A DNA stretch of 64,000 bases from Gammaproteobacteria bacterium (GTDB taxonomy: Bacteria > Pseudomonadota > Gammaproteobacteria > JABABF01): contig OZ250153.1 of NCBI GenBank assembly GCA_965237805.1, forward strand, positions 928,001 to 992,000, in the 5' to 3' direction. The notes under the pieces are model-generated. The model was not told the DNA's origin, did no database searches, and saw only the letters and a list, made by a program, of their open reading frames with translations. Each line of letters begins with the position of its first letter. Within the stretch, counting starts at the first letter, position 1. This document shows, piece after piece, positions 3,334 to 44,244 of this stretch. Position numbers and translations under genes: made by a program.

Positions 3334-3361
3334 GCGAGGGAAGTGGTCAATTAAAGCGTTT
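3334..3361 (+). promoter_or_regulatory. Putative ECF-sigma promoter upstream of the EF-hand genes
   Basis: GCGAGGGA-N14-GCGTTT, about 60 bp before ATG 3421; matches the motif upstream of the ECF sigma gene (8309-8337). Confidence 0.5.
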
Positions 3362-3420
3362 ATGTAGTTTACAATGCCACCGCTCCGTCCGTAGCGTTTT
3401 CCGTCAGCGGACAATCACCA

Positions 3421-4086
3421 ATGCCCCCAAAAAGCCCATTGCATGCACCGTCCCGCCCCGCATTGTCGATGGCAGCTATGGTGCTGGGGGCGGCGTCCCT
3501 GCTGGTGTTGACAACCGGGCCGGTAGCGCAGGCCGTTGGTCGCAGCTCCCATGTGAATCTATATACCGATAAGCATGGCCACATGCACCACCCCGCCGAC
3601 CTCAACAGCGACCAACAAGTCAGCCGCGACGAGGCGGTCAGCTTCGCCCGCAAACGCTTCGCCGAGCTGGACAGCGATGGCAACGGCTACTTAGATCGTG
3701 AGGATCTGAACGAATGGGGCCAGCAAAAGAACTACCGTGGCCTGCAGCAACTGGGCGGTCAGCTGTTCCTGCGGATGGATCTAAACAGCGATGGTACCGT
3801 CTCAGTTGAAGAAGCCGTCGCGACCGAGCTAGAGCGCCACCAAGATATTGACCAAAACCACGATGGCTTGCTCTCAGTCAAGGAGCACCGCGCACACAAA
3901 CGGGTGCGCCACATCAGGCGCGCCAGCGGCTTCTTTGACCGCGCCGACATCAATCACGATAACCAACTGTCGCGCCAAGAGCTGCAAGGCGCACTGCAAC
4001 AAATGCGGGAACGCCGCAATTATTGGGGTATCGGGACGGCTTGGGCCCACGACCAGGAGGGGGCCGATGGCCCACCAGAGCACTAA
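3421..4086 (+). CDS. Secreted EF-hand calcium-binding protein (five EF-hand loops), paralog 1
   Basis: Hydrophobic signal peptide ending AQA; loops DLNSDQQVSRDE, DSDGNGYLDRED, DLNSDGTVSVEE, DQNHDGLLSVKE, DINHDNQLSRQE. Confidence 0.85.
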   Translation: MPPKSPLHAPSRPALSMAAMVLGAASLLVLTTGPVAQAVGRSSHVNLYTDKHGHMHHPADLNSDQQVSRDEAVSFARKRFAELDSDGNGYLDREDLNEWGQQKNYRGLQQLGGQLFLRMDLNSDGTVSVEEAVATELERHQDIDQNHDGLLSVKEHRAHKRVRHIRRASGFFDRADINHDNQLSRQELQGALQQMRERRNYWGIGTAWAHDQEGADGPPEH

Positions 4087-4177
4087 ACCAAGCCCATGGG
4101 CTACTTTGTCCAGAGCTGCGCAGGTGGCACACAGCCTGCGTTATCTGCTAGTCACCACAAAACAGACATCCGGAGGG

Positions 4178-4825
4178 ATGAGTAGCGTGATGCAATCACA
4201 ACCCACCACACACTATTTTCCCCGCTTCACCGCGCTGTCGATAGCAACAATGGTGACGGGCATTGTGCTCGGTGCCGTGCTGATATCGCTGGCACCCACG
4301 ACGCAATCCGCCACGTCCCTCCAAGATCGGCAAATGGATGGCCGAGGCCACTTCACCCACCCTGCCGATCAAAACGCCGACCGCCAAATCAGCCGCGATG
4401 AAGCGACTGACTTTGCCCGCCAACGCTTCGCCAAGCTCGACAGCGACGATAACGGCTATCTGGACAACGCCGACCTAGCAGGACAGCGCCGCCAGTGCCC
4501 TAAAAAAGGGAGGAGGCTATTACGGCGGATGGATCGCGACCAAGATGGGCAAGTCACCACAGAAGAAATGGTGTTGGGCGCGCTGGAACGCCATCAAAAG
4601 ATCGATGGTGATGGCGATGGCCAAGTCTCTGCCGAGGAGCGCTACCAACACCGCAAAATGCGGCACCAACAGCGCTCAGAACGCTTTTTCGAAGAGGCCG
4701 ACAGCAACGGCGATGGCCAGCTATCGCACGCAGAGCTGCGTAACGCTATGGAGCGGCGGCACCGACACCGCCGACCCGGTGGCACTGGTGCCCACCCCGA
4801 TAGTCCCATCTCCGGAGACCACTAA
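4178..4825 (+). CDS. Secreted EF-hand calcium-binding protein (five EF-hand loops), paralog 2
   Basis: GGAGG at 4172 (start could be 4178, 4187 or 4190); signal peptide; loops DQNADRQISRDE, DSDDNGYLDNAD, DRDQDGQVTTEE, DGDGDGQVSAEE, DSNGDGQLSHAE. Confidence 0.85.
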   Translation: MSSVMQSQPTTHYFPRFTALSIATMVTGIVLGAVLISLAPTTQSATSLQDRQMDGRGHFTHPADQNADRQISRDEATDFARQRFAKLDSDDNGYLDNADLAGQRRQCPKKGRRLLRRMDRDQDGQVTTEEMVLGALERHQKIDGDGDGQVSAEERYQHRKMRHQQRSERFFEEADSNGDGQLSHAELRNAMERRHRHRRPGGTGAHPDSPISGDH

Positions 4826-4924
4826 AAGCCCCTGTCAACCACCTCCATACAACTGCCGGGATCGGCTGTGGCAGCTCGCCACCGCCATCCCGCTCCGAGT
4901 TGCCGTCGGGTCGTGTCCCCCCTT

Positions 4925-6279
4925 TTATACACGGCTCGGCGGCACACCTAAACCATCGCTGGCCGCAGCGATAAAGCAAAAGTTCAATGCGCCTCCAGCG
5001 GGTGATTCAGCTCTCCCGGGCTGTGGGGAAGAAGCCAACAACTCGCCCCAGCGATGAGCCAGCTCGCCACTGTCTATGACCTGCAGCTCGCCAGCGCGCA
5101 CATGCTCGATGCCGTCTATCCAAACACGCTCCACTTGGCTCGAACTCGCAGCATCAACCAATTGCGTGACTGGGTCGTGTACCGGTTGGGTGCGCGGATG
5201 GTCGAAGTTCACCGCCACGATGTCTGCTTTTTTGCCCGGCTCCAAGCTGCCGATTTGATCGGCTAGCCCAAGGGCACGAGCACCGCCTATGGTGCCCAGC
5301 TGCAAGGCTTGGTCAGCACTCAGCAATACGTCGCCCACCGCGAAGGTGCGCGCGAGTAGCGCCGCCAAGCGAAGCTCGAACAGCATGTCCAAGCTGTCAT
5401 TGCTGGCGGGGCCGTCTGTGCCGATACCCACCCAACCCCGGCACCGAGTAGTGCGTCGAGGGCGCACACCCCGCTGGCCAGCTTCAGATTGGACAAAGGG
5501 CAGTGCAAGGCCTGCACTTGGTGTCGCGCTAACAAGACCCGCTCGGCATCGTCGAGATGCACCAGATGTGCGGCTTGCAGCCCGTGAACCAAGCCAGCGT
5601 CGGCGATCAGCTGCAAGGGCCGCTTGCCATGGCTGGCGACACTCTAAGCAATTTCCGCCTCGGTCTCATGCGCATGAATGTGCACACGCAGCCCCAGCTC
5701 GTCAGCGAGCACGGCCGGTCTCGGCCAGTTGGCCGGGGTCGACGGTGTAGACCGAATGCGGTGCCAAGGCGGGGGTGATCAGCGGGTGTCCGCGCCAAGC
5801 GGCGGCAAAGTCACGGCGCCACTGGTTGAGCACATTGATCAGCGGGCCACCGATCTGAGCTCGCAGGCCATTCTCGGCGGCGGCCTCGGGGAAAAATACA
5901 TGTCGGCAAAACAAGTTGTGCCAGACAGCAACATCTCGGCGCTGGCCAAGCGAGTGCCATCCCGAACGAAATCTGCATCGACCCAGCGTTGCTCCAGCGG
6001 CCAAATATAGTCCTCCAACCAGCGCTGTAAGACGGCATCGCTACCGATGCCGCGCAACAGGCTCATGGCGGCATGGGTGTGAGTGTTGACCAAGCCGGGG
6101 ATCAAGAGGTGGTGCGGCAGCTCCACATGGTGCGCCTGCGGATAGGCTTGGCGCGCGGTGGCGGCGGGCAACAGCGTTTGATCCGGTCGCCGTCAATCAA
6201 CAACGCACACCCCTCCAGTGCGCTCGCAGGACGGCAATACCGACACGATCCAGCGTGCGTACAGGAGGGTCTGTGACAT
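4925..6279 (-). pseudogene. mtaD: Pseudogene of TRZ/ATZ-family amidohydrolase (MTA/SAH deaminase-like)
   Basis: Consecutive fragments in different frames: [46 protein letters not shown]...EIA*, HCPLSNLKLASG, GTDGPASND, GSLEPGKKAD. Several frameshifts and one in-frame TAG. Confidence 0.85.
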
Positions 6280-6340
6280 GGTGCGCTATCGTCCTGCCTA
6301 AGGCGATGGGCGGGCAGTGCCCTCGGATCAATCGGCGGCC

Positions 6341-6367
6341 ATGCTCCTAGGCTGATGCTCCTAGGCT
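6341..6367. repeat. 13-bp tandem direct repeat ATGCTCCTAGGCT duplicating the GST stop codon
   Basis: Copies at 6341-6353 and 6355-6367. Confidence 0.8.
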
Positions 6368-6993
6368 TGGTCTTCGGCCAGCGTCGTGGCCACTGCTGGC
6401 CGCGAGACCACGCGACCGCGCCAAGCGAATAGCTTGGGCAACCCTTCCAACGGCTCGCCTGGACGAACAAAGGGGATGAACTGCAGGAAGGCGAGCAGCT
6501 GGATATCAGCCACCGTGAAGCGCGAGCCCGCCAAGAAATCGCCGTTCAACTGCGCCTCGAACCACTTAAGGCCATCTTGCGCCACCGCCTTGATGCCCTC
6601 AGCACCCTCGGGGACGATCCGGATGTGCTGGCCCATCATTGCGGCGAACTCGCCGTAGCAGAAGCTGTGGGTCAGCGGCTCGGTGAATAGCAGGGTGACG
6701 CGGCGCGACCACATCAACGCCTCGGCCCGCTCTTCCGGGGTACTACCAAACAACGGCGGACTGGGTTGCAGCTCCTCCAAATAGCTGCAGATGGCGGTGG
6801 TCTCAGTGATGGCGAGGCCACTGTCCAAGACCAGTGCCGGACTCTGGCCGACCGGGTTGATTTTGAGATACTCTTCGCCACGCGATTCCTGCTTCATGAC
6901 ATCGAGCTGGTGGCGCGGCACTGCCATGCCCTTCTCGGCGATGAAAATACGCACAACCATCGGGTTGGGGCCTAAAGACTGATAGAGTTTCAT
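6361..6993 (-). CDS. Glutathione S-transferase family protein
   Basis: GPNPMVVRIFIAEKG, INPVGQSPALVLD, ITETTAICSYLEE, FTVADI. Confidence 0.9.
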   Translation of the reverse strand: MKLYQSLGPNPMVVRIFIAEKGMAVPRHQLDVMKQESRGEEYLKINPVGQSPALVLDSGLAITETTAICSYLEELQPSPPLFGSTPEERAEALMWSRRVTLLFTEPLTHSFCYGEFAAMMGQHIRIVPEGAEGIKAVAQDGLKWFEAQLNGDFLAGSRFTVADIQLLAFLQFIPFVRPGEPLEGLPKLFAWRGRVVSRPAVATTLAEDQA

Positions 6994-7069
6994 CCCTTGG
7001 CTTGCCTAAAGCGATCCGATCGGATGCCCAGTATACAATCCGTCAGAATGCACTATCGGACAAATCGCC

Positions 7070-7636
7070 GTGCCACAGGAGCCGCTCCAGCTCACCGGAC
7101 ACTGGCTCGAGAGCGCCAGGCGCTATCCGTCACCGAATTGCGCACCACGCCCGCACGACGAGGAGCCGAGCTTGCTGGTGATACACGGCATCAGCCTACC
7201 GCCGGGGGAATTCGGCGGCGGTCATGTTCAGCGCCTGTTCTGCAACGCGCTCGATTGTGCCGAACACCCCACCTTTGTCACGCTGAGCGAGCTGCGGGTC
7301 TCGGCGCACCTGCTGATCGAGCGCAATGGCCGCCTATCTCAGTTCGTGCCCTTCGACTGCGCGGCGTGGCACGCCGGAGAATCCTGTTTCGCCGGGCGCA
7401 GACAATGCAATGATTTCAGCATCGGCATCGAGCTGGAGGGCACCGACGACCAAGCCTACGAGGCTCGGCAATACGAGATTTTGGGCGCTGTCGCCAAGCT
7501 GTTGATGCGCCACTATCCGCAAATCACCCCGGCGCGCATCACCGGCCACTCCGACATCGCCCCAGAGCGCAAGACCGATCCCGGCCCAGCCTTCGAGTGG
7601 CAACAGTTGTGGCGCCACATGGAGCTGCCCCAATGA
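7070..7636 (+). CDS. ampD: 1,6-anhydro-N-acetylmuramyl-L-alanine amidase
   Basis: SPN..RP, LLVIHGISLPPGEFGG, VSAHLLIER, AWHAG, CNDFSIGIELEG, GHSDIAPERKTDPG. Confidence 0.95.
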   Translation: MPQEPLQLTGHWLESARRYPSPNCAPRPHDEEPSLLVIHGISLPPGEFGGGHVQRLFCNALDCAEHPTFVTLSELRVSAHLLIERNGRLSQFVPFDCAAWHAGESCFAGRRQCNDFSIGIELEGTDDQAYEARQYEILGAVAKLLMRHYPQITPARITGHSDIAPERKTDPGPAFEWQQLWRHMELPQ

Positions 7637-7672
7637 AGGTGCTCGGCAGTCCTGAGCCCGCCGGTAGTCCTG

Positions 7673-8233
7673 TCAGCGCCGCCGCTCGCGCCAGAGAATC
7701 TCGCGCTCATCTCGACGCGCACCGATGCGGCGCGCCAACACAAACAGCAAATCGCTGAGGCGGTTCAAATAGTGCAACAGCACTACAGGCACCGCCTCTA
7801 CCGCACGCAGGGCAACCAGCCGCCGTTCGGCACGCCGACACACAGTGCGTGCCAAATGGCAGCGTGCCACCGCTTCGCTACCACCCGGTAGCACAAAGTT
7901 GGCCAAGGGATCTTGCCCCTCCATGTGCCGCTCCAGCGCTTGCTCCAGCGCCTTGATGTGGCGCGGGCCAACCCGGGGTGGTGCCCCGCCAGACGGCATG
8001 CACAGTTCGCCGCCGAGGTCGAACAGGTCTTGCTGGATGTCCTCCAAAAGTACCGTCAACTCGTCATCGACCACCAGCGCGGCACCGAGCAACCCAATCA
8101 CGCTGTTCAGCTCGTCCAGCTCGCCGAGCAGTTCGACGCGCGGCGAGTCCTTGCCGATACGCCGACCGTCACCGAGGCCAGTGCTACCATCATCGCCCGT
8201 GCGGGTAACAATTTTTGAGAGTCGCTTGCCCAT
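7673..8233 (-). CDS. ATP:cob(I)alamin adenosyltransferase, PduO type
   Basis: KIVTRTGDDGSTGLGDG, DELNS, ARTVCRRAER, YLNRLSDLLFVLAR. Confidence 0.93.
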   Translation of the reverse strand: MGKRLSKIVTRTGDDGSTGLGDGRRIGKDSPRVELLGELDELNSVIGLLGAALVVDDELTVLLEDIQQDLFDLGGELCMPSGGAPPRVGPRHIKALEQALERHMEGQDPLANFVLPGGSEAVARCHLARTVCRRAERRLVALRAVEAVPVVLLHYLNRLSDLLFVLARRIGARRDEREILWRERRR

Positions 8234-8308
8234 GCCATCGGTCGGAATCTGACCATATCACCAAACACGCCCCATTCTACCTTCCAACCGCAGGGTGCCT
8301 GACAGCTG

Positions 8309-8337
8309 GCGAGGGATGCACAAGTACAATTGCGTAT
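8309..8337 (+). promoter_or_regulatory. Putative autoregulatory ECF-sigma promoter
   Basis: GCGAGGGA-N15-GCGTAT immediately upstream of the ECF sigma ATGs at 8348/8360. Confidence 0.5.
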
Positions 8338-8347
8338 ATATGGTGTT

Positions 8348-9001
8348 ATGATTGTTGCCATGGCCTCCCCTGCAGTCGATCTGTTATCTCTGTTGGCGAC
8401 GATACGCCCCCCCGCTGGGGCGCCGGAGCATGTGGCGCCCAATAGTGACATCGCATTGATGGACGCCGTGCGCGACGGCGACCAACAGGCTTTTACCACG
8501 TTGGTGCAGCGCTATCACGACGCGATCTACCGAATCGCTTGGCGTACCTTGTTAGACAGCGAGGCGGCACGCGATGCGACGCAGGAAGTCTTCATGAAAT
8601 TGTGGCGGCGACCGACCTGGCAACACAGCGGCGGTGCCTCGTTGCGTACATGGCTATGCCGCGTGGCACTAAATGCGGCGATTGATGCCCGCCGCCGCCG
8701 CCGCCCGACCGTAGATCTACCGGAAGTGGATTTCCCCAACCCGTCGACCGAGCATGGCCAGGACGAACAGCTGCAGACAGAATGGCGTCGTCAGCTCGTG
8801 CATCGCTTGGTGGCTGAGTTACCCGACCGCTGGCGCGAGGTGCTCGTGCTGTATTATTTTGAACAGATGTCTCATCAGGAAACTGCGCAAGTGCTTGGCA
8901 TCTCAGCTAAAGCAGTGGAGTCAGCGGTGGCTCGCGCACGGCAAGCTTTGCGGCAGTCGCTGAAGAGCAAAGGCTTACATGGGGAAATTCTGTTATCATG
9001 A
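8348..9001 (+). CDS. ECF RNA polymerase sigma factor
   Basis: Region 2 (GDQQAFTTLVQRY, ARDATQEVFMKLW, LRTWLCRVALN) and region 4 (LPDRWREVLVL...ETAQVLGIS); start uncertain (8348 or 8360). Confidence 0.93.
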   Translation: MIVAMASPAVDLLSLLATIRPPAGAPEHVAPNSDIALMDAVRDGDQQAFTTLVQRYHDAIYRIAWRTLLDSEAARDATQEVFMKLWRRPTWQHSGGASLRTWLCRVALNAAIDARRRRRPTVDLPEVDFPNPSTEHGQDEQLQTEWRRQLVHRLVAELPDRWREVLVLYYFEQMSHQETAQVLGISAKAVESAVARARQALRQSLKSKGLHGEILLS

Positions 9002-9393
9002 GCACTATGAAAACCAACCACAAAGCAGCTGCGCAAGCGACAGCAGACACCGCCAATGGCGGCATCACTCTGCGCGAGTTCGCATCGGTGCCATCCCCGT
9101 CGCCGAAATGGACTTCGACGATGATCGCCCAAGTGATCGCCAACCCACAGCTACACGGGTCTCGGCTGATGCTCACCGTGGAGTGGCTGCAGGAACAGTG
9201 GAGTCAATTCCGCTCGCAACAGGTGGTGGTGGTGGTGCAGCCACGGCTGGCGATGGCTGGTACCATGGCCGCCGTCTTCCTAGCGGTGGTCATGTGGCAC
9301 AGTTCAAGCCAGTGGTCGATAGCAGACAATCTGGAATATTTTGCCTCGACGCTGATAAGCGATGAGATTTACGACTTGGATTGGAGCAACTGA
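8998..9393 (+). CDS. Putative single-pass anti-sigma factor
   Basis: ATGA overlap with the sigma stop; one hydrophobic segment (LAMAGTMAAVFLAVVMW) and a short acidic C-terminal tail. Confidence 0.6.
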   Translation: MSTMKTNHKAAAQATADTANGGITLREFASVPSPSPKWTSTMIAQVIANPQLHGSRLMLTVEWLQEQWSQFRSQQVVVVVQPRLAMAGTMAAVFLAVVMWHSSSQWSIADNLEYFASTLISDEIYDLDWSN

Positions 9394-10109: not shown

Positions 10110-11402
10110 TCAGCCGCGCCCCAATGCCCGGTAGTCCAGCCCGGCAGCGCACATAGCGGCTTCGTCGAACAGGCGCACGGCATCGTAGACCACGCGCGGC
10201 GGGGCCATTGCCTCAGACAACGCCCGTAGCTCGATCGTGGTGAATTCAGGGTTGGCGTTCAACACCAGCAACATATCGGCACCGCGGGCGGCGACGATCG
10301 CGTCGTCATAGCGCACCACCCCCAACGGCAAGGCGCTGTTCTGGGCTGTGGGATCGCAGACACGCACCGATAGCCCGGCTTCAGCCAAGGCGCGAACCAC
10401 CAGCAGAGCCGGGCTGTGGCGCAGGTCGTCAGTGCCCGCTTTAAAACTGAGCCCCCACACCGCCACCGGGCCGTCGGCCCCAACCTCGTCGCGCAACTGG
10501 CACAAGCTGCGGGGCAACTGCTCAATGCGGCGTTCATTGGAATTGACGATCGCCTCGATGGCGGTTGCATCGAGACCCGCCTCTCTACTGGCCTCACTCA
10601 GTATGCGGCCATCTTTAGGCAAGCAGCTGCCACCAAAGCCGGGACCAGCTTGCAGATAATCAGGCCCAATGCGTGCATCCATGCCAGCAATCTTGGACAC
10701 CTCGTCGATGTCGCCCGTGACCGCGTCACATAGCGCGGCCACCTCATTGATGACGCTGATGCGGGCGGCGAGTAGCAGATTGGAAGCCAATTTGGACAAC
10801 TCGGCGCTGGCTGTGCGGCAAAACAGCATCGGCGACTCTTGGCCGACGGCTCGGTTGCGCTTGAGTAACGGCGCGTAGACATCGTGCAGGTGCTGCCGTG
10901 CCACCTCTTCTTCGGCACCGATGACGATGCGGGAGGGTCGGCGACAGTCCTCCAACGCGTGCCCTTGGCGCAAGAATTCAGGGCAACAAGCCACATAGAG
11001 CGTTTTGTCCAGCTGCTCAATCCGTTGTGTCAACCGTGCGCAGGTGCCGGGCGGCACGGTGGATTTAACCACGATCACAGCACCGGGAAGCAGTGTGGCA
11101 GAGGCCTCTTGGACAATCTGCCACAAAGTTTCATCGGCCTCTGTCAGGGTGACAGCGATGCACAGCAGGGCTGCTTCCCGTGACGCTGAAGCGATGTCGC
11201 TGTGCAGCTGCAAGATGCCTTCTTGAAGTGCTGTTTGCAAGGCTTCCCGAACACCGGGCTCCCTGAGCGCCGGCCGACCCTCGGCCAGCGCGGCAAAGCG
11301 CTCCGGGTCAATCTCACAACAGTGCACCTCATGGCGCAACTCGGTCAAGTTCAAAGCATTGCTGAGACCGACATAGCCAGCGCCTATAACCGCGATTCTC
11401 AT
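10110..11402 (-). CDS. ugd: UDP-glucose/GDP-mannose 6-dehydrogenase
   Basis: GAGYVG, KSTVPPGT, PEFLRQG, GPGFGGSCLPKD, GLSFKAGTDDLR. Confidence 0.9.
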   Translation of the reverse strand: MRIAVIGAGYVGLSNALNLTELRHEVHCCEIDPERFAALAEGRPALREPGVREALQTALQEGILQLHSDIASASREAALLCIAVTLTEADETLWQIVQEASATLLPGAVIVVKSTVPPGTCARLTQRIEQLDKTLYVACCPEFLRQGHALEDCRRPSRIVIGAEEEVARQHLHDVYAPLLKRNRAVGQESPMLFCRTASAELSKLASNLLLAARISVINEVAALCDAVTGDIDEVSKIAGMDARIGPDYLQAGPGFGGSCLPKDGRILSEASREAGLDATAIEAIVNSNERRIEQLPRSLCQLRDEVGADGPVAVWGLSFKAGTDDLRHSPALLVVRALAEAGLSVRVCDPTAQNSALPLGVVRYDDAIVAARGADMLLVLNANPEFTTIELRALSEAMAPPRVVYDAVRLFDEAAMCAAGLDYRALGRG

Positions 11403-11416
11403 GGTGGCAAAATGAC

Positions 11417-12517
11417 TCAGCTATCGGATTGGGACAACAACGCCGCATTGCGCCATTCATAGGCTTCGCTGAGCGGGAAGCGCATCCCGATCTCGACGAT
11501 AAAGCGTGTCACGCGCCTCTCATTGTATAGGCAATGTGCGCGCTGTTGCGCGGCGCGAGCCGCCGCCCGCAACGCGTCATCGTGTTGCATATAGTGGCGC
11601 ACCAGTCGGCGCAGCTCGTCGATATCTTTGAAGCGGGGCACTTCCGTTGCCGGGAACAGCCGCTCCAATTGCGGCACTGGTGGCGACAACGCCAACACGC
11701 CGTTGCCAGTCAGCTGGATCAGTCGGTCAGAACTGTAGAGTGGGATCGAATCGGTGATGCTGTTGTAGTTGATGCCGATGCGGCTGGTGCCCAAGGTCTG
11801 TACATAGTGCCGCCCGTACAGCCACTGGCCGTCGGCGTGGCCACCGTAGAGGCCGAGCCGCAACTCGTCTGCCAATGGCCGCAACTGCGCGGCCAGCGCC
11901 CGCTGGCGTGCGGTGCCGCCACTGGCGAAAAACAAGTCCAGCTTGGGTGAGGGGTTCTCGCAGGCGCTCTCGGTCTCTATGCTGGCATCACAGGGGTTAG
12001 GCAGGTAGTGGATACGCTCGGTCGCCCGCGGCGGGTTGCCGAGCAGTTCAGCAGCCGTCGTCGGGTGTGAAGTGGTGAACAGGGCATTTAGCAGCTCCAG
12101 CCGTGATCTCAGCAACTGGATCTTAGGCAGCGTCAGCTGATCCACCCACCACTGGAGCAGTGGCGTCTCGGGGTGGTCTTCTCGCAGCGCCACCAAGGTG
12201 GCAACAGACAGCAGCTCGGTATGGCCGAGTAGGATCAACTGGGGGCGATGGCTGCGCGCCGCCGCCAGCACATGGCGTTGCAACGCTCGCCGGCCCCAGA
12301 CCTTGCTGCCGAAAACCGCTGCGTGGCGAGCCAAGTCGCGGTATGAGAGCTGGTAGACATGGTGGCCGTTGCGCACCAAGCCATTGCTGATTTTGTGATC
12401 GACCGAATAATAGCGCCCCGCCAGCTGGTCTTGGGGTCTGCCGCGGCGTGGCGACAGGCGCATCCGGGGCAATTGGGCGAAATTGGCGATGTGCAAAATG
12501 CGTAGCGACGGGGTCAT
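11417..12517 (-). CDS. Glycosyltransferase (GT-B, CgeB/Glyco_trans_1_2-like)
   Basis: KISNGLVRNGH, PNPCDASIE, LYSSDRLIQLTGNG; lies in the glycan cluster; start at MTPSLRILH inferred. Confidence 0.7.
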   Translation of the reverse strand: MTPSLRILHIANFAQLPRMRLSPRRGRPQDQLAGRYYSVDHKISNGLVRNGHHVYQLSYRDLARHAAVFGSKVWGRRALQRHVLAAARSHRPQLILLGHTELLSVATLVALREDHPETPLLQWWVDQLTLPKIQLLRSRLELLNALFTTSHPTTAAELLGNPPRATERIHYLPNPCDASIETESACENPSPKLDLFFASGGTARQRALAAQLRPLADELRLGLYGGHADGQWLYGRHYVQTLGTSRIGINYNSITDSIPLYSSDRLIQLTGNGVLALSPPVPQLERLFPATEVPRFKDIDELRRLVRHYMQHDDALRAAARAAQQRAHCLYNERRVTRFIVEIGMRFPLSEAYEWRNAALLSQSDS

Positions 12518-12521
12518 CGGC

Positions 12522-13634
12522 CTATGCATCTGTAGCCGTGTCGTCGCGACACCCCAAGACAGCACGGTAGACGGCCAAATTGGCTGCAACCATGGCTGGC
12601 AGGGTGAAGCCACCTGCTATCACCCAGCGGCGATCAGGAGGCGGCAACGCCACCGCACGCGACAGGCAGTCTGCCAGCGCCGCTACATCGCCCGGCGGAA
12701 ACAGCAAGCCGTTGACGCCATGCTTGATGAGGTCGAGCACACCGCCGTGGGCGGATGCCACCACCGGACGCTCCATGGCCAGCGCCTCGGCGACGACGCG
12801 CCCAAAAGCCTCAGGTTTGCGCGATGGCAGCACAACAACATCCGCCAGTGCATAGTAGGCGCGAATATCGGCTTGATGGCCGAGGAAACGAGTCGCCTCG
12901 GCCACGCCCAGCGCAACGGCGAGACGACGCAGGCGGCGCGTCTCGCGCACACTGCCACGACCGATGAACACGGCACTCCACGCCAGCCCCCGGCTACGCA
13001 CCGCAGCTAGGGCGCGCAACAACAGCTCCTGCGCCTTGGTCGCCGACAGGCGAGCGGCACACAGCGCGATGCGCTCCTCGCGCCCACAACCCAGCGCAGC
13101 GCGCAGCTCCTCCACTCGATGCGGCGCGACTTGACCGGGATCAAAATAGGCACAGTCCACACCGCGCGGTATGACGGTCATCCGCTCGTCGGCCACACCA
13201 TAATGACGCCTTAGGTGTTCGCGCACGGCGTTGCTGGGGCAGATCAGCCGCTGACCGCGGGTCATGATGCGGCTATAGGCATTGACGCGATTGATGCCGT
13301 GCACGGTGGTGACCACTGGCAGTGCGAGGCGGCGATTGGCCCAAGCTACCAGCCAAGCTGGCAGGCGACTGCGCACGTGTAGCAGCTGCGGGAGGAGCTG
13401 ACGCAACACGCATTCCAAAGCCCTTGCGCGCTGCGGGAAGCTGAATGGGTTTTTGCTGGCAACCGGTTGTTGGCAGTGACGGCCACCGTCGGCTTCGATC
13501 CGCTTGACATAGCTGCCACCGCTCGATATGACAATACTCTCGACACCGTGTTTGACCAGCTCGCGATTGAGCTCGACGACGCCGCGCTCGACACCGCCAC
13601 CCTCCAACGCTGGCAACAATTGCACGATGCGCAC
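12522..13634 (-). CDS. GT4 family glycosyltransferase
   Basis: QLLPALEGGGVERG, VTTVHG, PEAFGRVVAEALAMERPVVAS; GTG start inferred. Confidence 0.9.
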   Translation of the reverse strand: MRIVQLLPALEGGGVERGVVELNRELVKHGVESIVISSGGSYVKRIEADGGRHCQQPVASKNPFSFPQRARALECVLRQLLPQLLHVRSRLPAWLVAWANRRLALPVVTTVHGINRVNAYSRIMTRGQRLICPSNAVREHLRRHYGVADERMTVIPRGVDCAYFDPGQVAPHRVEELRAALGCGREERIALCAARLSATKAQELLLRALAAVRSRGLAWSAVFIGRGSVRETRRLRRLAVALGVAEATRFLGHQADIRAYYALADVVVLPSRKPEAFGRVVAEALAMERPVVASAHGGVLDLIKHGVNGLLFPPGDVAALADCLSRAVALPPPDRRWVIAGGFTLPAMVAANLAVYRAVLGCRDDTATDA

Positions 13635-13868
13635 GACGATCAGCCGCACATAGACGGAGGCGGCGCACGCCACCAGAGCGAGCACCCGACCATAGTGCGC
13701 CGCGACAGGCGGCAACAGGAGACAGAAATGCCCACCATCACCCCATTGTATGCGGGGCACTCAGCGCCACTTAGGCTGCTCGCAGCTGCCATATAATCGC
13801 GTTGCAACATGATGCTGTTCGGGTAGCGCCCACTATGGGCATCGCCAACTGTAGCGCGGGGAAACGAT

Positions 13869-14777
13869 ATGCCCGAAGATGCGCGACCAGCGACGCCCCA
13901 AAACATCCTGCTGTTCAAACTGGGTGCCTTGGGTGATGTGATTCTCAGCATGCCCACCATGCGCCGGATCCGCCTGTATTATCGCACTCCGCAGGCGCGG
14001 ATCACCGTTTTGACCTCGCCGCCTTATGCCGAGCTGTTCCGGCGCTGCCCCTATGTCGACGAGGTCTGGCTCGATCCACGCAAACCCATATGGCGCTTTC
14101 ACCACTTCGTGGCGGTGGCGCGGCAGCTCAAATATGGCGGCTTCGATGCGCTGTATGACCTGCAGGGCAATCGTCACACGCGACGCTATCACCGCTGGGC
14201 TCTGGGCACCCTCCCCTATTGCCACAACCCCACCGAGCGCGAGCTGCCGCTACCCCAACCACCCCCGGCATCAATCGACCTATCGCCGTGGATCGCCGAC
14301 GATGTGCAGACCATTTTGCACCGCCATCGGATCGGCGACGGCTTCGTGCTATTGATACCCGGCAGCTCGGCACGCAACGCGCACAAGCGGTGGCCGTTTT
14401 TCGATTCGCTCGCGAAACGCCTGCGGGCAGATGGATGGCAGCTCGTCACGGCACCAGGGCCGGATGACATCGCATGCTGCCGAGCGTTGCCCGCCACGAT
14501 GTTGCTGGACGGTGGGCACCCGCTCAGCCTCTTCCAATTGGCCGGGCTGTGCGCACACGCAAGCCTAGTAGTCGGCAATGACACCGGCCCCACGCATCTC
14601 GCCGTCCACTGCGGTGCTGCAAGCGTGGTGTTGTACGGTGTGCCGGGCATGGCCGAACGCATCGGCACCGCGCAGCACAGTGCTGCCATCGAGGCGGTGG
14701 GCATCAAGTCGATATCACCCGCCGAAGTCCACCGTGCCGCCAGCCGTGCGCTCTCTTCCTACCCAGAACCGGCGTAG
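13869..14777 (+). CDS. GT9 family (ADP-heptose:LPS heptosyltransferase-like) glycosyltransferase
   Basis: ILLFKLGALGDV, YDLQG, KRWP, VGNDTGPTHLA. Confidence 0.9.
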   Translation: MPEDARPATPQNILLFKLGALGDVILSMPTMRRIRLYYRTPQARITVLTSPPYAELFRRCPYVDEVWLDPRKPIWRFHHFVAVARQLKYGGFDALYDLQGNRHTRRYHRWALGTLPYCHNPTERELPLPQPPPASIDLSPWIADDVQTILHRHRIGDGFVLLIPGSSARNAHKRWPFFDSLAKRLRADGWQLVTAPGPDDIACCRALPATMLLDGGHPLSLFQLAGLCAHASLVVGNDTGPTHLAVHCGAASVVLYGVPGMAERIGTAQHSAAIEAVGIKSISPAEVHRAASRALSSYPEPA

Positions 14778-15157
14778 AGTTTTTCTTCGACGATCGCGGA
14801 GCCGCTGAGGCGGTCAATGTCGCGTTTAAGCGCCGAACGGCGATCGTTGGCAGTGTAGATGGCACGGGCTGTGGCGATGAAAGTCGCGCCAAAATCCCCG
14901 GCTGCATCGCAGCGGCGTATATCGTCTTCGAGCTGCCACAACTCGGCATTGACCACATGCAGTTGCGCGGCCATCTCCCGCAGCGATGCCGAATCGGGCA
15001 AGGCCGCATCGCGCACCGCACACAGCCGCTCCATCTCGCGCCGCACATTGGCCTGTCGACCCGGCTCCGCGATGCGCTCGGATTTGATCCCCAAGATGGT
15101 GATCTTGTCGATCAATTCGCCAGCCCCGACTTCGACCCTAATCGTTTGGCTCATCAT
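14759..15157 (-). CDS. DUF6165 family protein
   Basis: GELIDKITIL.IK, N..LW.LED.IR, ARAIY..ND.R..LKR.I, EEKLY pattern. Confidence 0.8.
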   Translation of the reverse strand: MMSQTIRVEVGAGELIDKITILGIKSERIAEPGRQANVRREMERLCAVRDAALPDSASLREMAAQLHVVNAELWQLEDDIRRCDAAGDFGATFIATARAIYTANDRRSALKRDIDRLSGSAIVEEKLYAGSG

Positions 15158-16060
15158 TCAATCCTGCAAGGAGAGAATTTTCCAAGCGTGTTGCCGCTTG
15201 TAGTACTCAACCGCCCGCTCGCGCACCGCTTTGAAGTCGCCACCCGCCTTGGACGAAGCGTGGGTCGTGCTGGCGACGCGCCCGCTATCGACCTCGCAAC
15301 TCCACAAGGCTGGCTGTTCTGGTGGATGGGGTGGCACCCAAGTCTTGAGCGCGCCGTGTACTTGGGCCATGCAGCTCAGGTGCATGTCTTCTGCATTGCG
15401 ATAGCTATAGGGGGGCTCGCACCACATTAGCTTGGCGTGGCAGCTGCGCATGAACCAGCTGTGACCGACAAAATCCACTTCCGTCGCCACCGGGTGGTGC
15501 TCACCATTCCAGCCGACGTTGCGAAAGCCAAGACGGTAGTAATTTTGGGACGGCAAGATGACACCAGCGCCACCGAGAATGCCGTCATGACCAGCCGCTA
15601 TCATAGCGAGGCAGTTCTCGAACCACCGCGAGCCAGGAAAGATATCGTCATCGATCACAGCAACATATTCTGTCTGCGCCAACACGGCCATGCTGAAACG
15701 ACCAAAAAAAGACCAATTGTGGTTGGAGACGATCAAGCGATCGCACTGATCAGAGAGATCCTGAACCGATGGGGCACCCGGGCAGGCATTGTGCCAAATC
15801 CATATCTGCTGCGGGGGCACACTCTGCCGCCGCAGCGCCTCCAATTGCTGGGGCAGCCAGTGTAGCCGTCGAAATGCCGACAAAATAACCGTGATGCCAG
15901 CAGGATCCAAAGCGTCTCCGCTACTGGTTCTGGCAAAGCGAATCCTGCGCTGCGCCACTTTGAGGGCGCGGCTGCCGTGCCACGCCCGCAGGCGCAACCA
16001 CAGCCCCCTAGGTGAGTAGCGATGGGTTCCGGGAGGACGTTTTTTGAACAGTGCCACCAT
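15158..16060 (-). CDS. GT2/GT-A glycosyltransferase
   Basis: ITVILSAFRR, FFGRF, DDD motif (VIDDDIFPG), VDFVGHSWF, EDMHLS. Confidence 0.75.
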   Translation of the reverse strand: MVALFKKRPPGTHRYSPRGLWLRLRAWHGSRALKVAQRRIRFARTSSGDALDPAGITVILSAFRRLHWLPQQLEALRRQSVPPQQIWIWHNACPGAPSVQDLSDQCDRLIVSNHNWSFFGRFSMAVLAQTEYVAVIDDDIFPGSRWFENCLAMIAAGHDGILGGAGVILPSQNYYRLGFRNVGWNGEHHPVATEVDFVGHSWFMRSCHAKLMWCEPPYSYRNAEDMHLSCMAQVHGALKTWVPPHPPEQPALWSCEVDSGRVASTTHASSKAGGDFKAVRERAVEYYKRQHAWKILSLQD

Positions 16061-16081
16061 GCTCCATGCCTCGGCAGGCCT

Positions 16082-17215
16082 TCAATCCCGTAGCGCCTGC
16101 GCGACCAAGGCGGCAATGCGTTCGGCAGCGTGGCCATCACCATAGGGATTGGGCGCGGCCGCCATCGCCCGATATTCTAAGGTGCTGTCCAAGAGTAGCC
16201 CGATGGCAGCACCGATAGCACTGGCATCGGTGCCGATCAGGCGCGCAGCACCGGTATCCAGCACTTCCTGTCGCTCGCTGACAGTGCGCATCACCAGCAC
16301 CGGCTTGTCCAGCGATGGTGCCTCTTCTTGGATACCGCCGCTATCTGTCAGCACCAAATAACAGCCACGCAGCAAATAGATGAAAGTTGGGTAGTCCAGT
16401 GCTGGCAACAGCTTGATATTCGGTTCATCGGCCAGTGCCGCACGCACCGGTTGCTGCACTTGAGGGTTGGCGTGTAGAGGCCAGACCAAGTCCAGCTCCC
16501 GGCGCGAGCGCGCCAAATCGATCAAGCCTTGGCAAATCGCTTGTAGCGTGCTGCCGAAATGCTCGCGGCGGTGGCTGGTCACCACCACAAAGCGCCGTCC
16601 GGTATCGGGGTCATAGCCCGCTGCCCGTAATCCTGCGGCCAAAGTGACGCGCAACGACTCATCCCTATCGAGCCGCCGCACTGTGTCAAGCAGACAATCG
16701 ACAACCGTATTGCCGGTGATGTGCACCGCACCGTCCACCCCCTCTGCGCGCAACTGCTCGGCGTTGGCGGAGGTGGGGGCGAAGTGCAATGTGGCGAGAC
16801 GGGAGAGCAGGATGCGCTGCAACTCCTCCGGCCACGGTGCCTCGCGACTACCGCTACGCAGCCCGGCTTCCACATGCGCCACCGGAATGTGCTCGTAGAA
16901 AGCCGCAAGTGCCGTCGCCAATGCGGTGGTGGTGTCGCCCTGCACCACCACCAGATCTGGTGCGTACTGCCGCAGACTGCGCTGCAGCTGCTCGAGTATG
17001 GCAGCTGCGAGACGCGCCAAACTCAGATCAACAACATCCAGCTCTAAGTCGACCGGCAGCTCCAGCCACCCCAGCATTTGTGCGACGAGCTCCCGGTGCT
17101 GGCCGCTCAGGCAGACGGTGACGCGCAGCCCGTCCAACCGCCGCATGGCGTGTACCAAAGGAGCGAGTTTGACTGCCTCGGGGCGGGTGCCGATAGCGAT
17201 GAAGACATGCTTCAC
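16082..17215 (-). CDS. wecB: UDP-N-acetylglucosamine 2-epimerase (non-hydrolysing)
   Basis: GTRPEAVKLAP, VQGDTTT, HVEAGLRS, TDSGGIQEEAP, NPYGDG. Confidence 0.95.
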   Translation of the reverse strand: MKHVFIAIGTRPEAVKLAPLVHAMRRLDGLRVTVCLSGQHRELVAQMLGWLELPVDLELDVVDLSLARLAAAILEQLQRSLRQYAPDLVVVQGDTTTALATALAAFYEHIPVAHVEAGLRSGSREAPWPEELQRILLSRLATLHFAPTSANAEQLRAEGVDGAVHITGNTVVDCLLDTVRRLDRDESLRVTLAAGLRAAGYDPDTGRRFVVVTSHRREHFGSTLQAICQGLIDLARSRRELDLVWPLHANPQVQQPVRAALADEPNIKLLPALDYPTFIYLLRGCYLVLTDSGGIQEEAPSLDKPVLVMRTVSERQEVLDTGAARLIGTDASAIGAAIGLLLDSTLEYRAMAAAPNPYGDGHAAERIAALVAQALRD

Positions 17216-17244
17216 ATGAGCTACGCCCGCGCCGAGCACCACAG

Positions 17245-18999: not shown

Positions 19000-19697
19000 C
19001 CGCCTCCACGCCACAACACATTGATCGCCAAGGTGGCCGCCAGCGCTGCAGCGGCCACTGCCACCGCTAGCCAACCGGCCAGCGACGTACCGCGTTGCCG
19101 GGGATTGTAGGCCAGAGCGCCACCATCGACACCGCGCAGGCGCATCACGCTGTACTGCTCCTCGGCCAGATCAAAGCCGCGCACTATGAACAGCGCCATG
19201 GCGGCGGGCAGGTTGCGGCTACCGCGCAGCCGGAGCGCCGTGCGGATATCGTCGAGCAGACTCAGCATTAAGAATAAGGCGCGGTAGCAAAGTAGCAGGC
19301 TCTGGCGCAACAGCGGCGGTAGCCAGCGGCCACCGACAGCAATCAGCTCCGGGTAGGGAGTGGTGGCAATCAGCAACACCGCCACCAATGTGCTGGACAG
19401 GGTGCGCAACAGCAGCAAAACGCTGGTCGTGGCCAACTCCAGCCCACCGCTCCATGTCACCAACAGCACGAACATGGTCGGATAGAGCGAGACCAAGAAC
19501 AGGATCCGCAAAGGGCAGCGGCTGGTGTGCGCCAGCGCCAACAACGCCATGTAGAGCAACAGCACAGGCACCACATGGTCGGCGCTGATGGCGGCGGCCA
19601 ACAGGAACACAGCGGCGAGCAGCTTGTACCCGGTGGGCAGACGGTGCAAGACGCTGTCCCCAACGTACGCAAAGTGGTCGATCAGGGCTAGCTTCAT
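18996..19697 (-). CDS. cbiQ: ECF transporter transmembrane T component (CbiQ/NikQ)
   Basis: S.LHRLP..K, ATTPYP, two LRG motifs; hydrophobic. Confidence 0.8.
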   Translation of the reverse strand: MKLALIDHFAYVGDSVLHRLPTGYKLLAAVFLLAAAISADHVVPVLLLYMALLALAHTSRCPLRILFLVSLYPTMFVLLVTWSGGLELATTSVLLLLRTLSSTLVAVLLIATTPYPELIAVGGRWLPPLLRQSLLLCYRALFLMLSLLDDIRTALRLRGSRNLPAAMALFIVRGFDLAEEQYSVMRLRGVDGGALAYNPRQRGTSLAGWLAVAVAAAALAATLAINVLWRGGG

Positions 19698-19762
19698 ATC
19701 GTTGCCAGCGCACCGCTACGGCACGCTGCCGATTGTGTCTGCGACTCTAGAGACAACCGCAC

Positions 19763-24577: not shown

Positions 24578-26175
24578 ACACCGCTGGCGAGCCCCCCGTC
24601 ATCTGGGTGGTGGCTGGCTCTGACTGTAGTGGTGGTGCCGGCCTGCAGGCGGATGTGATCGCCTGTGCCGACTTCGGCTGCCATGCCTGCCCGGTGCTGA
24701 GCGCGGTGACAGCACAGAGCATGGACACATTGCGGGCAGTGTATCCCCTCGATGCCGAGCAGTTGAGGAGTCAATTGTCGGCGCTGGCCACGACGATGCC
24801 ACCGCGGGCGATCAAGCTCGGCATGCTGGGCGGTGCCGACACGCTGGGCGTGATCACCGATTTCCTAGACAATGACAAGACTTTCGTGGTCTGTGATCCA
24901 GTGCTAACGACCAGTGGCGGCGACCCCCTGATCGACACTCAGGGCATCGCGGCCATGCGCCATCAATTGCTGCCCAAGGTGGATTTGCTGACGCCAAATC
25001 TGCAGGAACTCAAACGGCTGTCGGGGCGTCAGAAAATCGCTCACCCGCAGGATATCGAAGAAGCCGCCAAGATCTTGCTCGGCTTCGGCGCCAAATCGGT
25101 GTTGGTCAAGGGCGGACATCTGCAGCTGGGCGGCGATGCAGATTTTTGCTGTGACTACTGGACCGACGGCATCGATCCCCACTGGTCGCGCAGCCCCCGT
25201 ATCGACACCGCACGGCAGCGGGGCACCGGTTGCACTCTGGCCTCAGCGGTGGCAGCAGCCAAGGCCCGCGGCCACCCATTGCGCGATGCGATGGTGCTGG
25301 CTCGTATGTACCTGAACCGCCGTCTCGGCGCGGGGCGAGGCACACAGCAGCTCGGTGCCCTGCCTTTGCACGACGGCGGCGAGAGTTTGGCCGAACTGCC
25401 GACGGTACACGATGAATACCCCAGTGCCTCGACCCCAAAATTTGCCGTCTGTCCCAGACGCCCAATAGCGTTGTACCCGGTAGTGGACAGCGCCAAGTGG
25501 GTCGAGCGCCTATTCCGGCTCGGTGTGCCCACCGTGCAGCTGCGCATCAAGAGCGGTGCGCGCAAGGGGATTGCGGCTGAAGTGGCACGCTCCGTGGCAC
25601 TGGCTCGACGCCACAGCGCCAAGCTGATCGTCAACGACTACTGGCGCATGGCCATTGAAGTGGGGGCGTGGGGAGTGCATCTGGGACAATCCGATTTGGC
25701 TGCCGCCGACTTGGACGCGATGGCGGTGGCTGGCCTGCGCTTGGGCGTCAGCGTCCACGGTTGGCACGAGTTGGCACGCGCCCATGCGGTGGCACCCAGC
25801 TACATCGCCATCGGGGCCATCTTCGAGACCACTAGCAAGGAGCTGCCGACCGCCCCGCAGGGGCTCGAGCGACTGGCACGCTGGTGCCGCCTGCTCAAGG
25901 GTCATTATCCGGTGGTGGCGATCGGTGGCATCGCGGCGGACAATGCACTGGAGGTGCTGGATGCTGGTGCCGACGGTATCGCTATGATCAGCGCCATCAT
26001 CGGCACCGACGATTGGGCAGCCGCCACGCGCCATCTGTTGCGGCTGAGCGGTGGCGCGGCACCGACGAGCAGCGGGCGACGCGGCAGGCTGAACCAGCGG
26101 ACACCACGGAGTAAACCGCCTTCGAGGCACCGCATCACAGCCTCATTCAGGGGGTGTCGTAGCCCATCGGATTAG
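24574..26175 (+). CDS. thiDE: Bifunctional HMP kinase/HMP-P kinase and thiamine-phosphate synthase (ThiD-ThiE fusion)
   Basis: [26 protein letters not shown], followed by LYPVVDS, VNDYW, GVHLGQ.D, VAIGGI. Confidence 0.9.
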
Positions 26176-27172
26176 CCTGTTGCCAGCGCCAATGGTCCCG
26201 CGCCATCTGCTCCAAACCATATTCGGCGCGCCAATCCAGTTCGCGCTCGGCACGCGACACATCGGCGTAGATGGCGGCGATGTCGCCGGGACGTCGAGCT
26301 CGTACCTGCTGCGGCAGGGGGTGTCCGCAAGCGCGCTCGCAAGCGGCGATGACCTCGCGCACCGAATAGCCGCGACCGGTGCCCAGATTCCAGGTATGTA
26401 CCCCAGCTGCCTGCGACGCGTCGGCCAGCACCTCCAGCGCCCGCACATGTGCTGCGGCCAGATCCCAGACATGGATGTAATCGCGCACAGCAGTGCCGTC
26501 AGGCGTCGGGTAGTCGTCGCCGAATATGCTCAGCTCGGGCAGGCGTCCAGCGGCGACCTGGACGATGCGCGGCAAAAGATTGGCAGGTTCCCCACGCGGA
26601 TCTTCGCCGATGTTGCCGCTGGGATGGGCGCCGATGGGATTGAAATAGCGCAACAAAGCGGTGCGCCAACCGGGCTCGGCGACGGCAAGATCCCGCAACA
26701 GCTGCTCGATCAAGTATTTTGACCAACCGTAGGGATTGCTCGCTCCGGTCGGCGCCGATTCGTCGACTGGCACAGAACGCGGCTCGCCGTAGACCATGGC
26801 GGAAGAGCTGAACACCAGTGTTCGCAGACCAACCCGCTCCATCGCACGACACAGGTTGATCGTCCCGCGCAGGTTGACTTCGTAGTAGCGCAAGGGCTGC
26901 GCCACCGAGTCGGCCACCGCCTTGAGCCCGGCCAAGTGGATGACGCCATCATATGCACCCTCCTGCAACAGTGCCGCCAGCGCCTCGGCATCGAGCAGAT
27001 CCAATTCGACACACTGCGGGCGGCGACCGCTGAGCGCGGCGATGCGCGCGATCACTGCCGGATTGCTGTTGGCAAAGTTGTCCACCACCGTGGTCTCGTG
27101 GCCAGCGTCGAGCAGGGCGGCCACCACATGGCTACCGATGTAGCCAGCCCCGCCAGTTATCAGGATACGCAC
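26147..27172 (-). CDS. galE: UDP-glucose 4-epimerase
   Basis: TGGAGYIGSH, NPYGWSK, LRYFNPIGAH, DGTAVRDYIHV, RRPGD. Confidence 0.95.
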   Translation of the reverse strand: MRILITGGAGYIGSHVVAALLDAGHETTVVDNFANSNPAVIARIAALSGRRPQCVELDLLDAEALAALLQEGAYDGVIHLAGLKAVADSVAQPLRYYEVNLRGTINLCRAMERVGLRTLVFSSSAMVYGEPRSVPVDESAPTGASNPYGWSKYLIEQLLRDLAVAEPGWRTALLRYFNPIGAHPSGNIGEDPRGEPANLLPRIVQVAAGRLPELSIFGDDYPTPDGTAVRDYIHVWDLAAAHVRALEVLADASQAAGVHTWNLGTGRGYSVREVIAACERACGHPLPQQVRARRPGDIAAIYADVSRAERELDWRAEYGLEQMARDHWRWQQANPMGYDTP

Positions 27173-27189
27173 GCTGTGCCGACAGTGAT

Positions 27190-41465: not shown

Positions 41466-41564
41466 GGCCTAAGTATAAGACGCTCGCCCCGCGCTACTGG
41501 CAACGGCTCCCGCACGACACCCAGCGACTATACTTCGCATCTCATAGCCCCCACGCCCATAAAT

Positions 41565-43587: not shown

Positions 43588-43650
43588 CGAAACCCGAGGC
43601 CGCACAACAGGCGGGTGGCCAAGCGGCGACCGTGCGACGCAGCCCGGCGC

Positions 43651-44064: not shown

Positions 44065-44215
44065 TATTTCCCTAAGACACCAAGCTATTGCCGCAGTCTA
44101 GCACAGCACATCAGATGCAATAGCTGCGCAGCGGGCAGAGACGCCGTGTGGCCAGAAATTTTGCTTGACGGTTGCGATGGGCGACTTAAGTCATACCGCT
44201 ACGCGGTAAATTTGC

Positions 44216-44244
44216 TTGACGGTTACAGCAAATCGTATTAGAGT
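44216..44244 (+). promoter_or_regulatory. Sigma70-type promoter of nrdB
   Basis: TTGACG-N17-TAGAGT; the -35 lies in a 14-bp direct repeat also present at 44160-44173. Confidence 0.55.

Follow-up and report, generated by a model that had tools for sequence, protein, structure and literature searches.

Extracytoplasmic function (ECF) sigma factors of the old ECF20 group have been split into ECF281, ECF289, ECF290, and ECF291 (PMC7826278), and two of these groups bear on the genes considered here, an ECF sigma gene, a putative anti-sigma gene, and two genes for EF-hand proteins from a Gammaproteobacteria bacterium (assembly GCA_965237805.1, contig OZ250153.1, positions 928,001 to 992,000; this 64,000-nucleotide stretch is the window throughout). 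In the group supplement of PMC7826278 (Casas-Pastor et al. 2021), ECF290 is described as proteobacterial, with a one-transmembrane (one-TM) anti-sigma factor without a Pfam domain encoded at position +1 relative to the sigma gene and a heavy-metal-resistance protein at +2; its subgroup s2 has an EF-hand gene at -1, and its promoter motif, given as ACGG and CGT, is weak. The same source lists no studied member for ECF290, and a full-text literature search for "ECF290" returned only that publication.

ECF291 is the group of CnrYXH, encoded on plasmid pMOL28 of Cupriavidus metallidurans. Primer-extension start sites are reported 24-25 nucleotides (nt) before cnrY and cnrC (PMC9045368), and a CCGTATA box had earlier been confirmed by run-off transcription, according to PMC13492112. 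In the pMOL28 DNA, cnrCp reads CCGAGGGGAAG-N13-CCGTATAG (also read as GAGGGGAA-N14-CGTATA) and cnrYp reads GGGGGAGT-N12-CGTATAAG, which bears out the promoter type that a first-pass annotation of the window had given for CnrH (a GAGGG-type -35 box and a CGTAT -10 box). The ECF291 motif is printed as TCTCC/TACGCA in the ECF Hub supplement (PMC7826278) and as ATACGC/CCCTCA in Table 4 of PMC13492112; both are the reverse complement of the cnrCp and cnrYp boxes (GAGGGGAA / CGTATA; pMOL28 locus L081, 440-490 and 1820-1860), and the database motif may have been recorded on the opposite strand.

A third system was described in Caulobacter vibrioides in 2026 (PMC13171946), where the periplasmic three-EF-hand protein CaBP is encoded directly upstream of the ECF gene sigV. 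As described there, SigV influences cabp transcription and CaBP feeds back on sigV, with CaBP overexpression raising sigV expression, and acid and the depletion of calcium elicit a response from both genes. To link CaBP with SigV across the membrane, that study postulated an anti-sigma factor.

The first-pass annotation had read the window genes as one undescribed circuit. The ECF sigma factor, the promoter type, and the EF-hand linkage withstood analysis, but the undescribed status did not: because the layout is catalogued as ECF290s2 (PMC7826278) and an EF-hand/ECF loop has been studied in Caulobacter (PMC13171946), the association is already in print, as a database note and one recent genetic study. 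What the present locus adds is a coupling seen only through a shared, phylogenetically footprinted promoter and not through adjacency. It is distinct in its split layout with a duplicated promoter, its paired five-loop, His-rich EF-hand proteins, the lack of a CnrX-like gene at the locus, and an anti-sigma protein whose relatives occur only in a small clade. We propose, with a probability of about 0.65, that the sigma factor controls its own expression and, through a second copy of its promoter, that of the EF-hand operon. The features concerned, with protein lengths in amino acids (aa), are as follows.

3334..3361, + strand: candidate ECF promoter of the EF-hand operon; GCGAGGGA (-35, 3334-3341), 14-nt spacer, GCGTTT (-10, 3356-3361)
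3421..4086, + strand: EFh1; 221 aa, N-terminal hydrophobic segment 13-36, five EF-hand loops, 14 His
4190..4825, + strand: EFh2; 211 aa, N-terminal hydrophobic segment 13-38, five EF-hand loops, 11 His
8309..8337, + strand: candidate autoregulatory ECF promoter of the sigma/anti-sigma operon; GCGAGGGA (8309-8316), 15-nt spacer, GCGTAT (8332-8337)
8348..9001, + strand: ECF sigma factor; Pfam PF04542 (52-119) and PF08281 (149-201)
8998..9393, + strand: putative anti-sigma factor; 131 aa, start overlapping the sigma stop (ATGA), one TM segment 82-101

A motif pair before the two operons

Both sites were exactly as first annotated in coordinates, boxes, and spacers. They are intergenic and oriented toward the next gene, the first lying between a divergent enoyl-CoA hydratase gene (ATG 3311) and EFh1 (ATG 3421), with 59 nt from the end of the -10 box to the EFh1 ATG, and the second between a cobalamin adenosyltransferase gene and the sigma gene. 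With both strands searched, GCGAGGGA-N14/15-GCGT had 2 matches in the window. Dinucleotide shuffles of the window averaged 0.10 matches and reached two or more in 2 of 100 cases, while a first-order Markov model gave an expectation of 0.046 per window, or 0.003 if GCGT[AT]T was required. Because just 3.2% of strand positions were promoter-competent (outside coding regions and 5-150 nt ahead of a gene on the same strand, according to a rough gene map), the expectation in such positions of the window fell to ~0.0015. Across 81 other loci (1,256,781 bp) the strict pattern occurred twice, once at the sigma promoter of the orthologous locus L001 and once in L041, where the -10 box was GCGTGC and the site is apparently a chance one. 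The motif pair is real and more than chance.

No further copy of GCGAGGGA and its -10 box was found elsewhere in the 64-kb window at up to 1 mismatch. Two candidates with 2 mismatches were rejected, 41405-41377 (-) lying inside a - strand ThpR/LigT-like open reading frame (ORF) and 27995-27968 (-) inside a sulfotransferase gene. Before neither operon did a simple scan of the + strand (from 3200 on the EF-hand side) detect a sigma-70-like promoter, and Rfam had no match in the window.

Relatives of the sigma factor numbered 520 at E <= 1e-3 among 1,849 candidates, of which three were close (73, 65, and 64% identity) and the next at most 41% identical. The scan of species genomes with the sigma factor yielded 80 loci, with L001 (64% identity) as the sole ortholog; its gene order is that of the window, from the amidohydrolase gene through beyond AlgH, with no PF13801 gene after the anti-sigma gene. 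At the L001 sigma promoter (2244-2272), GCGAGGGA-N15-GCGTAT, both boxes were identical to those of the window, and the spacer, TAGGCGACGCTGGTT, differed at 11 of 15 positions. Because the boxes are identical while the spacer has diverged, this pattern is, on sequence comparison, the classic footprint of two functional boxes. The first-pass annotation had also pointed to CAATT, which is common to both window spacers but missing from TAGGCGACGCTGGTT; it was therefore rejected as a spacer element, and its sharing is probably incidental. From the end of the -10 box to the conserved sigma ATG there are 10 nt in the window and 10-11 nt across the window and L001. Given this short distance and the lack of a Shine-Dalgarno sequence in the interval (window 8332-8350, L001 2267-2286), a sigma mRNA with little or no leader is probable.

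Aligned on their cores, cnrCp reads GGGAA-N14-CGTAT, cnrYp GGGAG-N13-CGTAT, the L001 and window sigma sites GGGAT-N15-CGTAT, and the EF-hand site GGGAA-N14-CGTTT, so the promoter type of CnrYXH, GAGGG(G)A(A), 14-15 nt, and CGTAT, is found here. The sigma-4.2 helix of the window protein (VLGISAKAVES) is closer to that of CnrH (VLGLSVKAVEG) than to those of three further relatives, L005, L006, and L012, a resemblance that fits the shared -35 box but is only suggestive. Unlike in cnr, there is no CnrX, no RND/metal-efflux operon nearby, and no CnrY-like protein; the anti-sigma gene stands at +1 instead of -2, where cnr has CnrX at -1, and the candidate target genes encode EF-hand proteins. Judged by context, the window sigma factor does not belong to a CnrH (ECF291) system, and a CnrH-type promoter (GAGGGA/CGTAT) is here tied to a sigma factor outside nickel/cobalt resistance.

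The sigma factor, its putative anti-sigma partner, and their relatives

The identification of 8348-9001 as an ECF sigma gene was confirmed by its r2 and r4_2 Pfam domains; an overlapping gene for a one-TM partner follows it. TIGR02937 scored 110.5 bits against a cut-off of 42.9, placing the protein among the ECF (group IV) sigma-70 factors, and the best NCBIfam model, NF004113, scored 157.6 bits, below its cut-off of 208. A maximum-likelihood tree of 87 rows combined the window sigma factor with those of the 80 loci, with CnrH, and with five database proteins; it omitted P0004, which is almost the same as L001, and all other database matches. The window clade, CnrH, and a 6-row clade formed one starred branch of 11 rows (ultrafast bootstrap 99, Shimodaira-Hasegawa-like approximate likelihood ratio test [SH-aLRT] 91), with 75 other loci outside it. 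NF004113 was the best NCBIfam model for the window sigma factor and for 6 of 6 other scanned branch members, always below the cut-off; CnrH has this best model too, and that of an outgroup sigma factor was a different one. The window genes are best explained as an ECF sigma factor of the old ECF20 lineage and its putative anti-sigma partner, near ECF290 and CnrH/ECF291.

The 6-row clade (98/90) holds all three sigma factors with EF-hand linkage. With the tree serving as a proxy for group hidden Markov models (HMMs), the window clade stands beside, not inside, this clade with ECF290s2-like context. A regular-expression scan for ORFs with at least two EF-hand loops found them in 3 of the 80 loci (L005, L006, and L012), in each case directly upstream of the sigma gene, so the co-occurrence of sigma homologs and EF-hand genes that the first-pass annotation had proposed looking for does exist. 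All three have the exact ECF290s2 order (a secreted four-loop EF-hand protein, sigma factor, one-TM protein without a Pfam domain, and PF13801 protein), and they are the nearest non-orthologous relatives of the window sigma factor with DNA context, at 35-41% identity. L002, from the same clade, had no EF-hand gene.

The window resembles ECF290 in its proteobacterial, old-ECF20-derived sigma factor, its EF-hand gene association, the CGT in its -10 box, and a +1 gene (8998-9393) for a putative one-TM anti-sigma factor without a Pfam domain. Unlike in ECF290s2, the EF-hand genes are separated from the downstream sigma gene by 3.5 kb that hold four unrelated genes (a fragmented amidohydrolase, a glutathione S-transferase, an AmpD-like amidase, and a cobalamin adenosyltransferase, the last being the divergent -1 gene), and they have their own promoter copy; they are tied to the sigma gene only through the shared motif, not through -1 adjacency. 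There are two of them, His-rich and with five loops each instead of four. The +2 gene, in the window as in L001, encodes an AlgH-like protein (PF02622) and not a PF13801 protein, and the -35 box is GAGGGA as opposed to the reported ACGG. Likewise, the window anti-sigma family showed no homology to the +1 proteins of L005, L006, and L012 in a profile comparison (hhalign probability 1.2%).

ECF cascades exist, and a different ECF sigma factor encoded elsewhere in the genome might recognize the boxes and control both the sigma gene and the EF-hand operon, by cross-talk or in a cascade. The scan covers 64 kb of a 1.73-Mb contig, which leaves room for such a factor, and a dependence on SigT is reported for sigV as well as cabp in Caulobacter (PMC13171946). 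We nevertheless regard this arrangement as very improbable. Boxes that directly precede a sigma gene and are conserved together with it, as here, usually mark autoregulation; the promoter type is that of CnrH, the nearest characterized relative; and no other sigma gene was present among the window ORFs scanned.

Because of its position and architecture, the product of 8998-9393 is the likely anti-sigma factor. As first annotated, it is a single-pass candidate with one hydrophobic segment (82-101), which by hydropathy would separate a cytoplasmic N-terminal part from a periplasmic tail of 30-31 residues; in being short and single-pass with a short periplasmic tail it is like CnrY, to which it has no detectable similarity (BLASTP, E 0.12). 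It had no Pfam or NCBIfam match, and its relatives were limited to P0124 (60% identity) and the L001 ORF 2922-3308, each beside a sigma ortholog. In an ESM Atlas search the nearest clusters were unnamed Pseudomonadota proteins of 137-149 aa; DUF3619 (0.89) and zf-HC2 (0.88) were rejected there as below the evidence level. An AlphaFold2 (AF2) model from 3 sequences was unusable (mean predicted local distance difference test [pLDDT] score 45.7). The tail (residues 101-131, window 9298-9393; WSxADNLxYFA...YxLD) is the best-conserved part, with 27 of 31 residues identical to P0124, and this conservation hints at a conserved periplasmic partner or a protease site.

The first-pass claim that no CnrX-like gene follows the anti-sigma gene was accurate, the next gene being that for the AlgH-like protein, and a scan of 61 window ORFs (9 + 52, of at least 90 aa; a 62-ORF greedy map minus three spurious ORFs plus one) gave no CnrX/ZraP-type (PF13801) protein. 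A narrow HMM built from three PF13801 proteins recovered nothing beyond these three from the 12,031 six-frame ORFs of the window and the 80 loci and was too insensitive to add to this.

EF-hand proteins and the proposed circuit

Periplasmic EF-hand proteins are common in bacteria and mostly unexplained. The five EF-hands claimed for each window protein were all present as canonical 12-residue loops (D at 1, D/N/S at 3, D/N/S/G at 5, and D/E at 12, with a helix on either side), at residues 60, 84, 120, 144, and 176 of EFh1 and 60, 84, 115, 139, and 171 of EFh2. The two are paralogues with 44% identity; PF00036 scored 61.7 and 63.6 bits on the pair (cut-off 25.4), EFh1 matched EF-hand_1/5/6/7 in Pfam, and its AF2 model (mean pLDDT 65, core ~70-87) had a helix-loop-helix pattern. 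By sequence, and for EFh1 also by predicted structure, EFh1 and EFh2 are members of the EF-hand calcium-binding family. The EFh1 start codon is uncertain, as the database copy (P0121) begins 19 residues later. Since the 103-nt gap between the genes holds no motif copy of its own, EFh2 is probably co-transcribed with EFh1.

A Foldseek search of the EFh1 model against the PDB gave 0 matches at E <= 1e-3 and generic calmodulin-like ones only beyond that threshold, together with a local match to lanmodulin 8fns (TM-score 0.65 on the target, 100 columns, E 2e-3). Lanmodulin has a Pro at position 2 of the EF-hand loop. No loop of either window protein has one, and lanmodulin membership was rejected (NF053806, 37.6 and 49.8 bits against a cut-off of 135). 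Membership in the XopAW type III effectors was rejected as well (NF041410, 49.4 and 62.3 bits against 120), the match reflecting generic EF-hand similarity.

Three relatives of the pair that span its full length (P0127, P0129, and P0130) came from an exhaustive profile search; a word-indexed search with EFh1 was insensitive, returning itself and one weak match and missing its paralogue EFh2. P0129 and P0130, one of each paralogue type, come from a contig reported as 15,045 bp, the size of the contig carrying the sigma ortholog P0002 and the anti-sigma relative P0124, and P0127 comes from one of 53,340 bp, the size of that carrying the sigma ortholog P0003. Because the reported contigs match in bp, the EF-hand orthologs appear to be co-located with sigma orthologs. 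P0129, the EFh1 ortholog, is 56% identical to EFh1 over the whole alignment; its first ~50 residues cannot be aligned with the other four family members, the remainder is well conserved, and the mismatch may come from a frameshift or wrong start in the metagenome gene call.

Taken together, the sigma factor, the anti-sigma factor, and the EF-hand pair are probably one envelope-stress circuit. The sigma factor would recognize the CnrH-type promoter (GAGGGA, ~15 nt, CGTAT) before its own gene and transcribe the sigma and anti-sigma genes together, probably into a (nearly) leaderless mRNA. From the second promoter copy 5 kb away, it would transcribe an operon for two five-EF-hand calcium-binding proteins predicted to be secreted or membrane-anchored, and in both operons transcription would start downstream of these boxes. 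At rest, the one-TM anti-sigma factor would keep the sigma factor at the membrane until a periplasmic cue, which by analogy with the relatives may be calcium, pH, or metal status, frees it, and release would yield more sigma factor and more EF-hand protein. Such a regulon is a reasonable proposal because one promoter footprint, the comparison with CnrH, and a recurrent gene linkage all point to it. A functional parallel comes from Caulobacter, where the genetic partner of an ECF sigma factor is an EF-hand protein with Sec-type secretion and each gene has an ECF-type promoter; unlike EFh1 and EFh2, however, the protein has 133 aa and three EF-hands, and cabp abuts sigV, with the sigV promoter inside cabp (PMC13171946). 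The boxes reported there are GGAAA-N13-CGTTCA, and the likeness is drawn from the published description of the circuit.

Several observations weigh against a shared regulon, and some of them favor an arrangement in which the sigma factor is autoregulated only, the likeness of 3334-3361 to its promoter is due to chance or is that of a decayed site, and another sigma factor or regulator controls the EF-hand genes. The two sites are unlike in spacing (14 and 15 nt) and in the -10 box (GCGTTT and GCGTAT), and the extent of the motif was set after both copies had been seen. The first-pass annotation had staked its proposal on a motif more frequent than chance; this holds for the strict form but not for the relaxed core GAGGGA-N13-16-CGT, which was found 3 times against 1.74 expected, a count reached by 26 of 100 shuffles. 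The other loci, 1.26 Mb in all, held one unrelated chance match to the strict -35 box plus GCGT, and conservation across species was seen at the sigma site alone, because L001 ends before the EF-hand region. The co-location of the orthologs is drawn solely from equal contig sizes, and unrelated neighbors are also syntenic among close relatives, as in L001. Among the three ECF290-like loci, a recognizable ECF-type motif precedes the EF-hand gene in only one (L005, GGAAT-N14-CGTCT). Finally, the window sigma factor is only 30% identical to CnrH, and their grouping inside the starred branch is weak (87/48), with a long branch. A look-alike is still unlikely, in our judgment, given the very low expectation for a strict match in a promoter-competent position, the class of gene that it fronts, which is the one class recurring beside related sigma genes, and the lack of a detectable sigma-70-like alternative in the + strand scan.

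Within a shared regulon, the EF-hand proteins could serve as output, in calcium buffering or envelope protection, and should that be their whole role, the regulon would be a small ECF regulon of the ordinary sort. Alternatively, they might be the periplasmic sensor, binding or releasing the anti-sigma tail when loaded with Ca2+ or metal and so forming a self-amplifying loop. This idea is kept alive by the lack of a PF13801 partner at the locus, the conserved tail, and the Caulobacter feedback. PF13801 genes occur at +2 in L005, L006, and L012 and are missing from that position here and in L001, both EFh proteins are His-rich, and in Caulobacter sigV expression rises on CaBP overexpression and a membrane link is postulated (PMC13171946). 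A PF13801 gene may, however, sit elsewhere in the 1.73-Mb replicon, outside the window, and the EF-hand proteins would serve equally well as buffers or protective output. We therefore rate a sensor role as distinctly unlikely, and the same holds for its specific form, in which, within this lineage, the regulon's own His-rich products would have replaced the CnrX-type sensor of ECF20-family systems by binding, depending on Ca2+ or metal, the tail of a new anti-sigma family. If true, the secreted output would double as the sensor of a self-amplifying ECF switch, and the anti-sigma factor would supply the membrane link postulated for the CaBP-SigV loop. For either role, the system proposed here is compact, with four genes (sigma, anti-sigma, and two EF-hand proteins) and two short promoters. 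Its size would allow reconstruction in a laboratory host, as a way to study how an ECF anti-sigma factor learns of calcium or metal status.

Other features of the window

The amidohydrolase gene (PF01979) between the two operons, 4925-6280 (-), looks like a pseudogene because it is split over at least three reading frames (ORFs 4925-5467, 5320-5616, and 5839-6171). In L001, the N-terminal part of its counterpart is intact as far as the contig reaches.

Three further regions, 19219-19713 (-), 37430-39042, and 43615-44241 (+), had a third-position GC content of 0.43-0.58, compared with ~0.7-0.8 elsewhere, and no Pfam match; these ORFs may be foreign or non-coding. At 41200-41480 (-), an ORF starting at 41465 (MRLFFAVVPDD..., with an HLTLHF motif) looks like a ThpR/LigT 2',3'-cyclic phosphodiesterase gene. 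It shares sequence with the 5' end of a long + strand ORF, 41268-42830, in which the sulfotransferase domain starts only at residue 218. The latter ORF is one of two PF13469 sulfotransferase genes, the other being 27190-28386 (-). A cell-surface polysaccharide/lipopolysaccharide cluster occupies 10110-17242 and 26147-28386 and includes genes for a UDP-glucose dehydrogenase, several glycosyltransferases, a heptosyltransferase-like protein, and a UDP-GlcNAc 2-epimerase.

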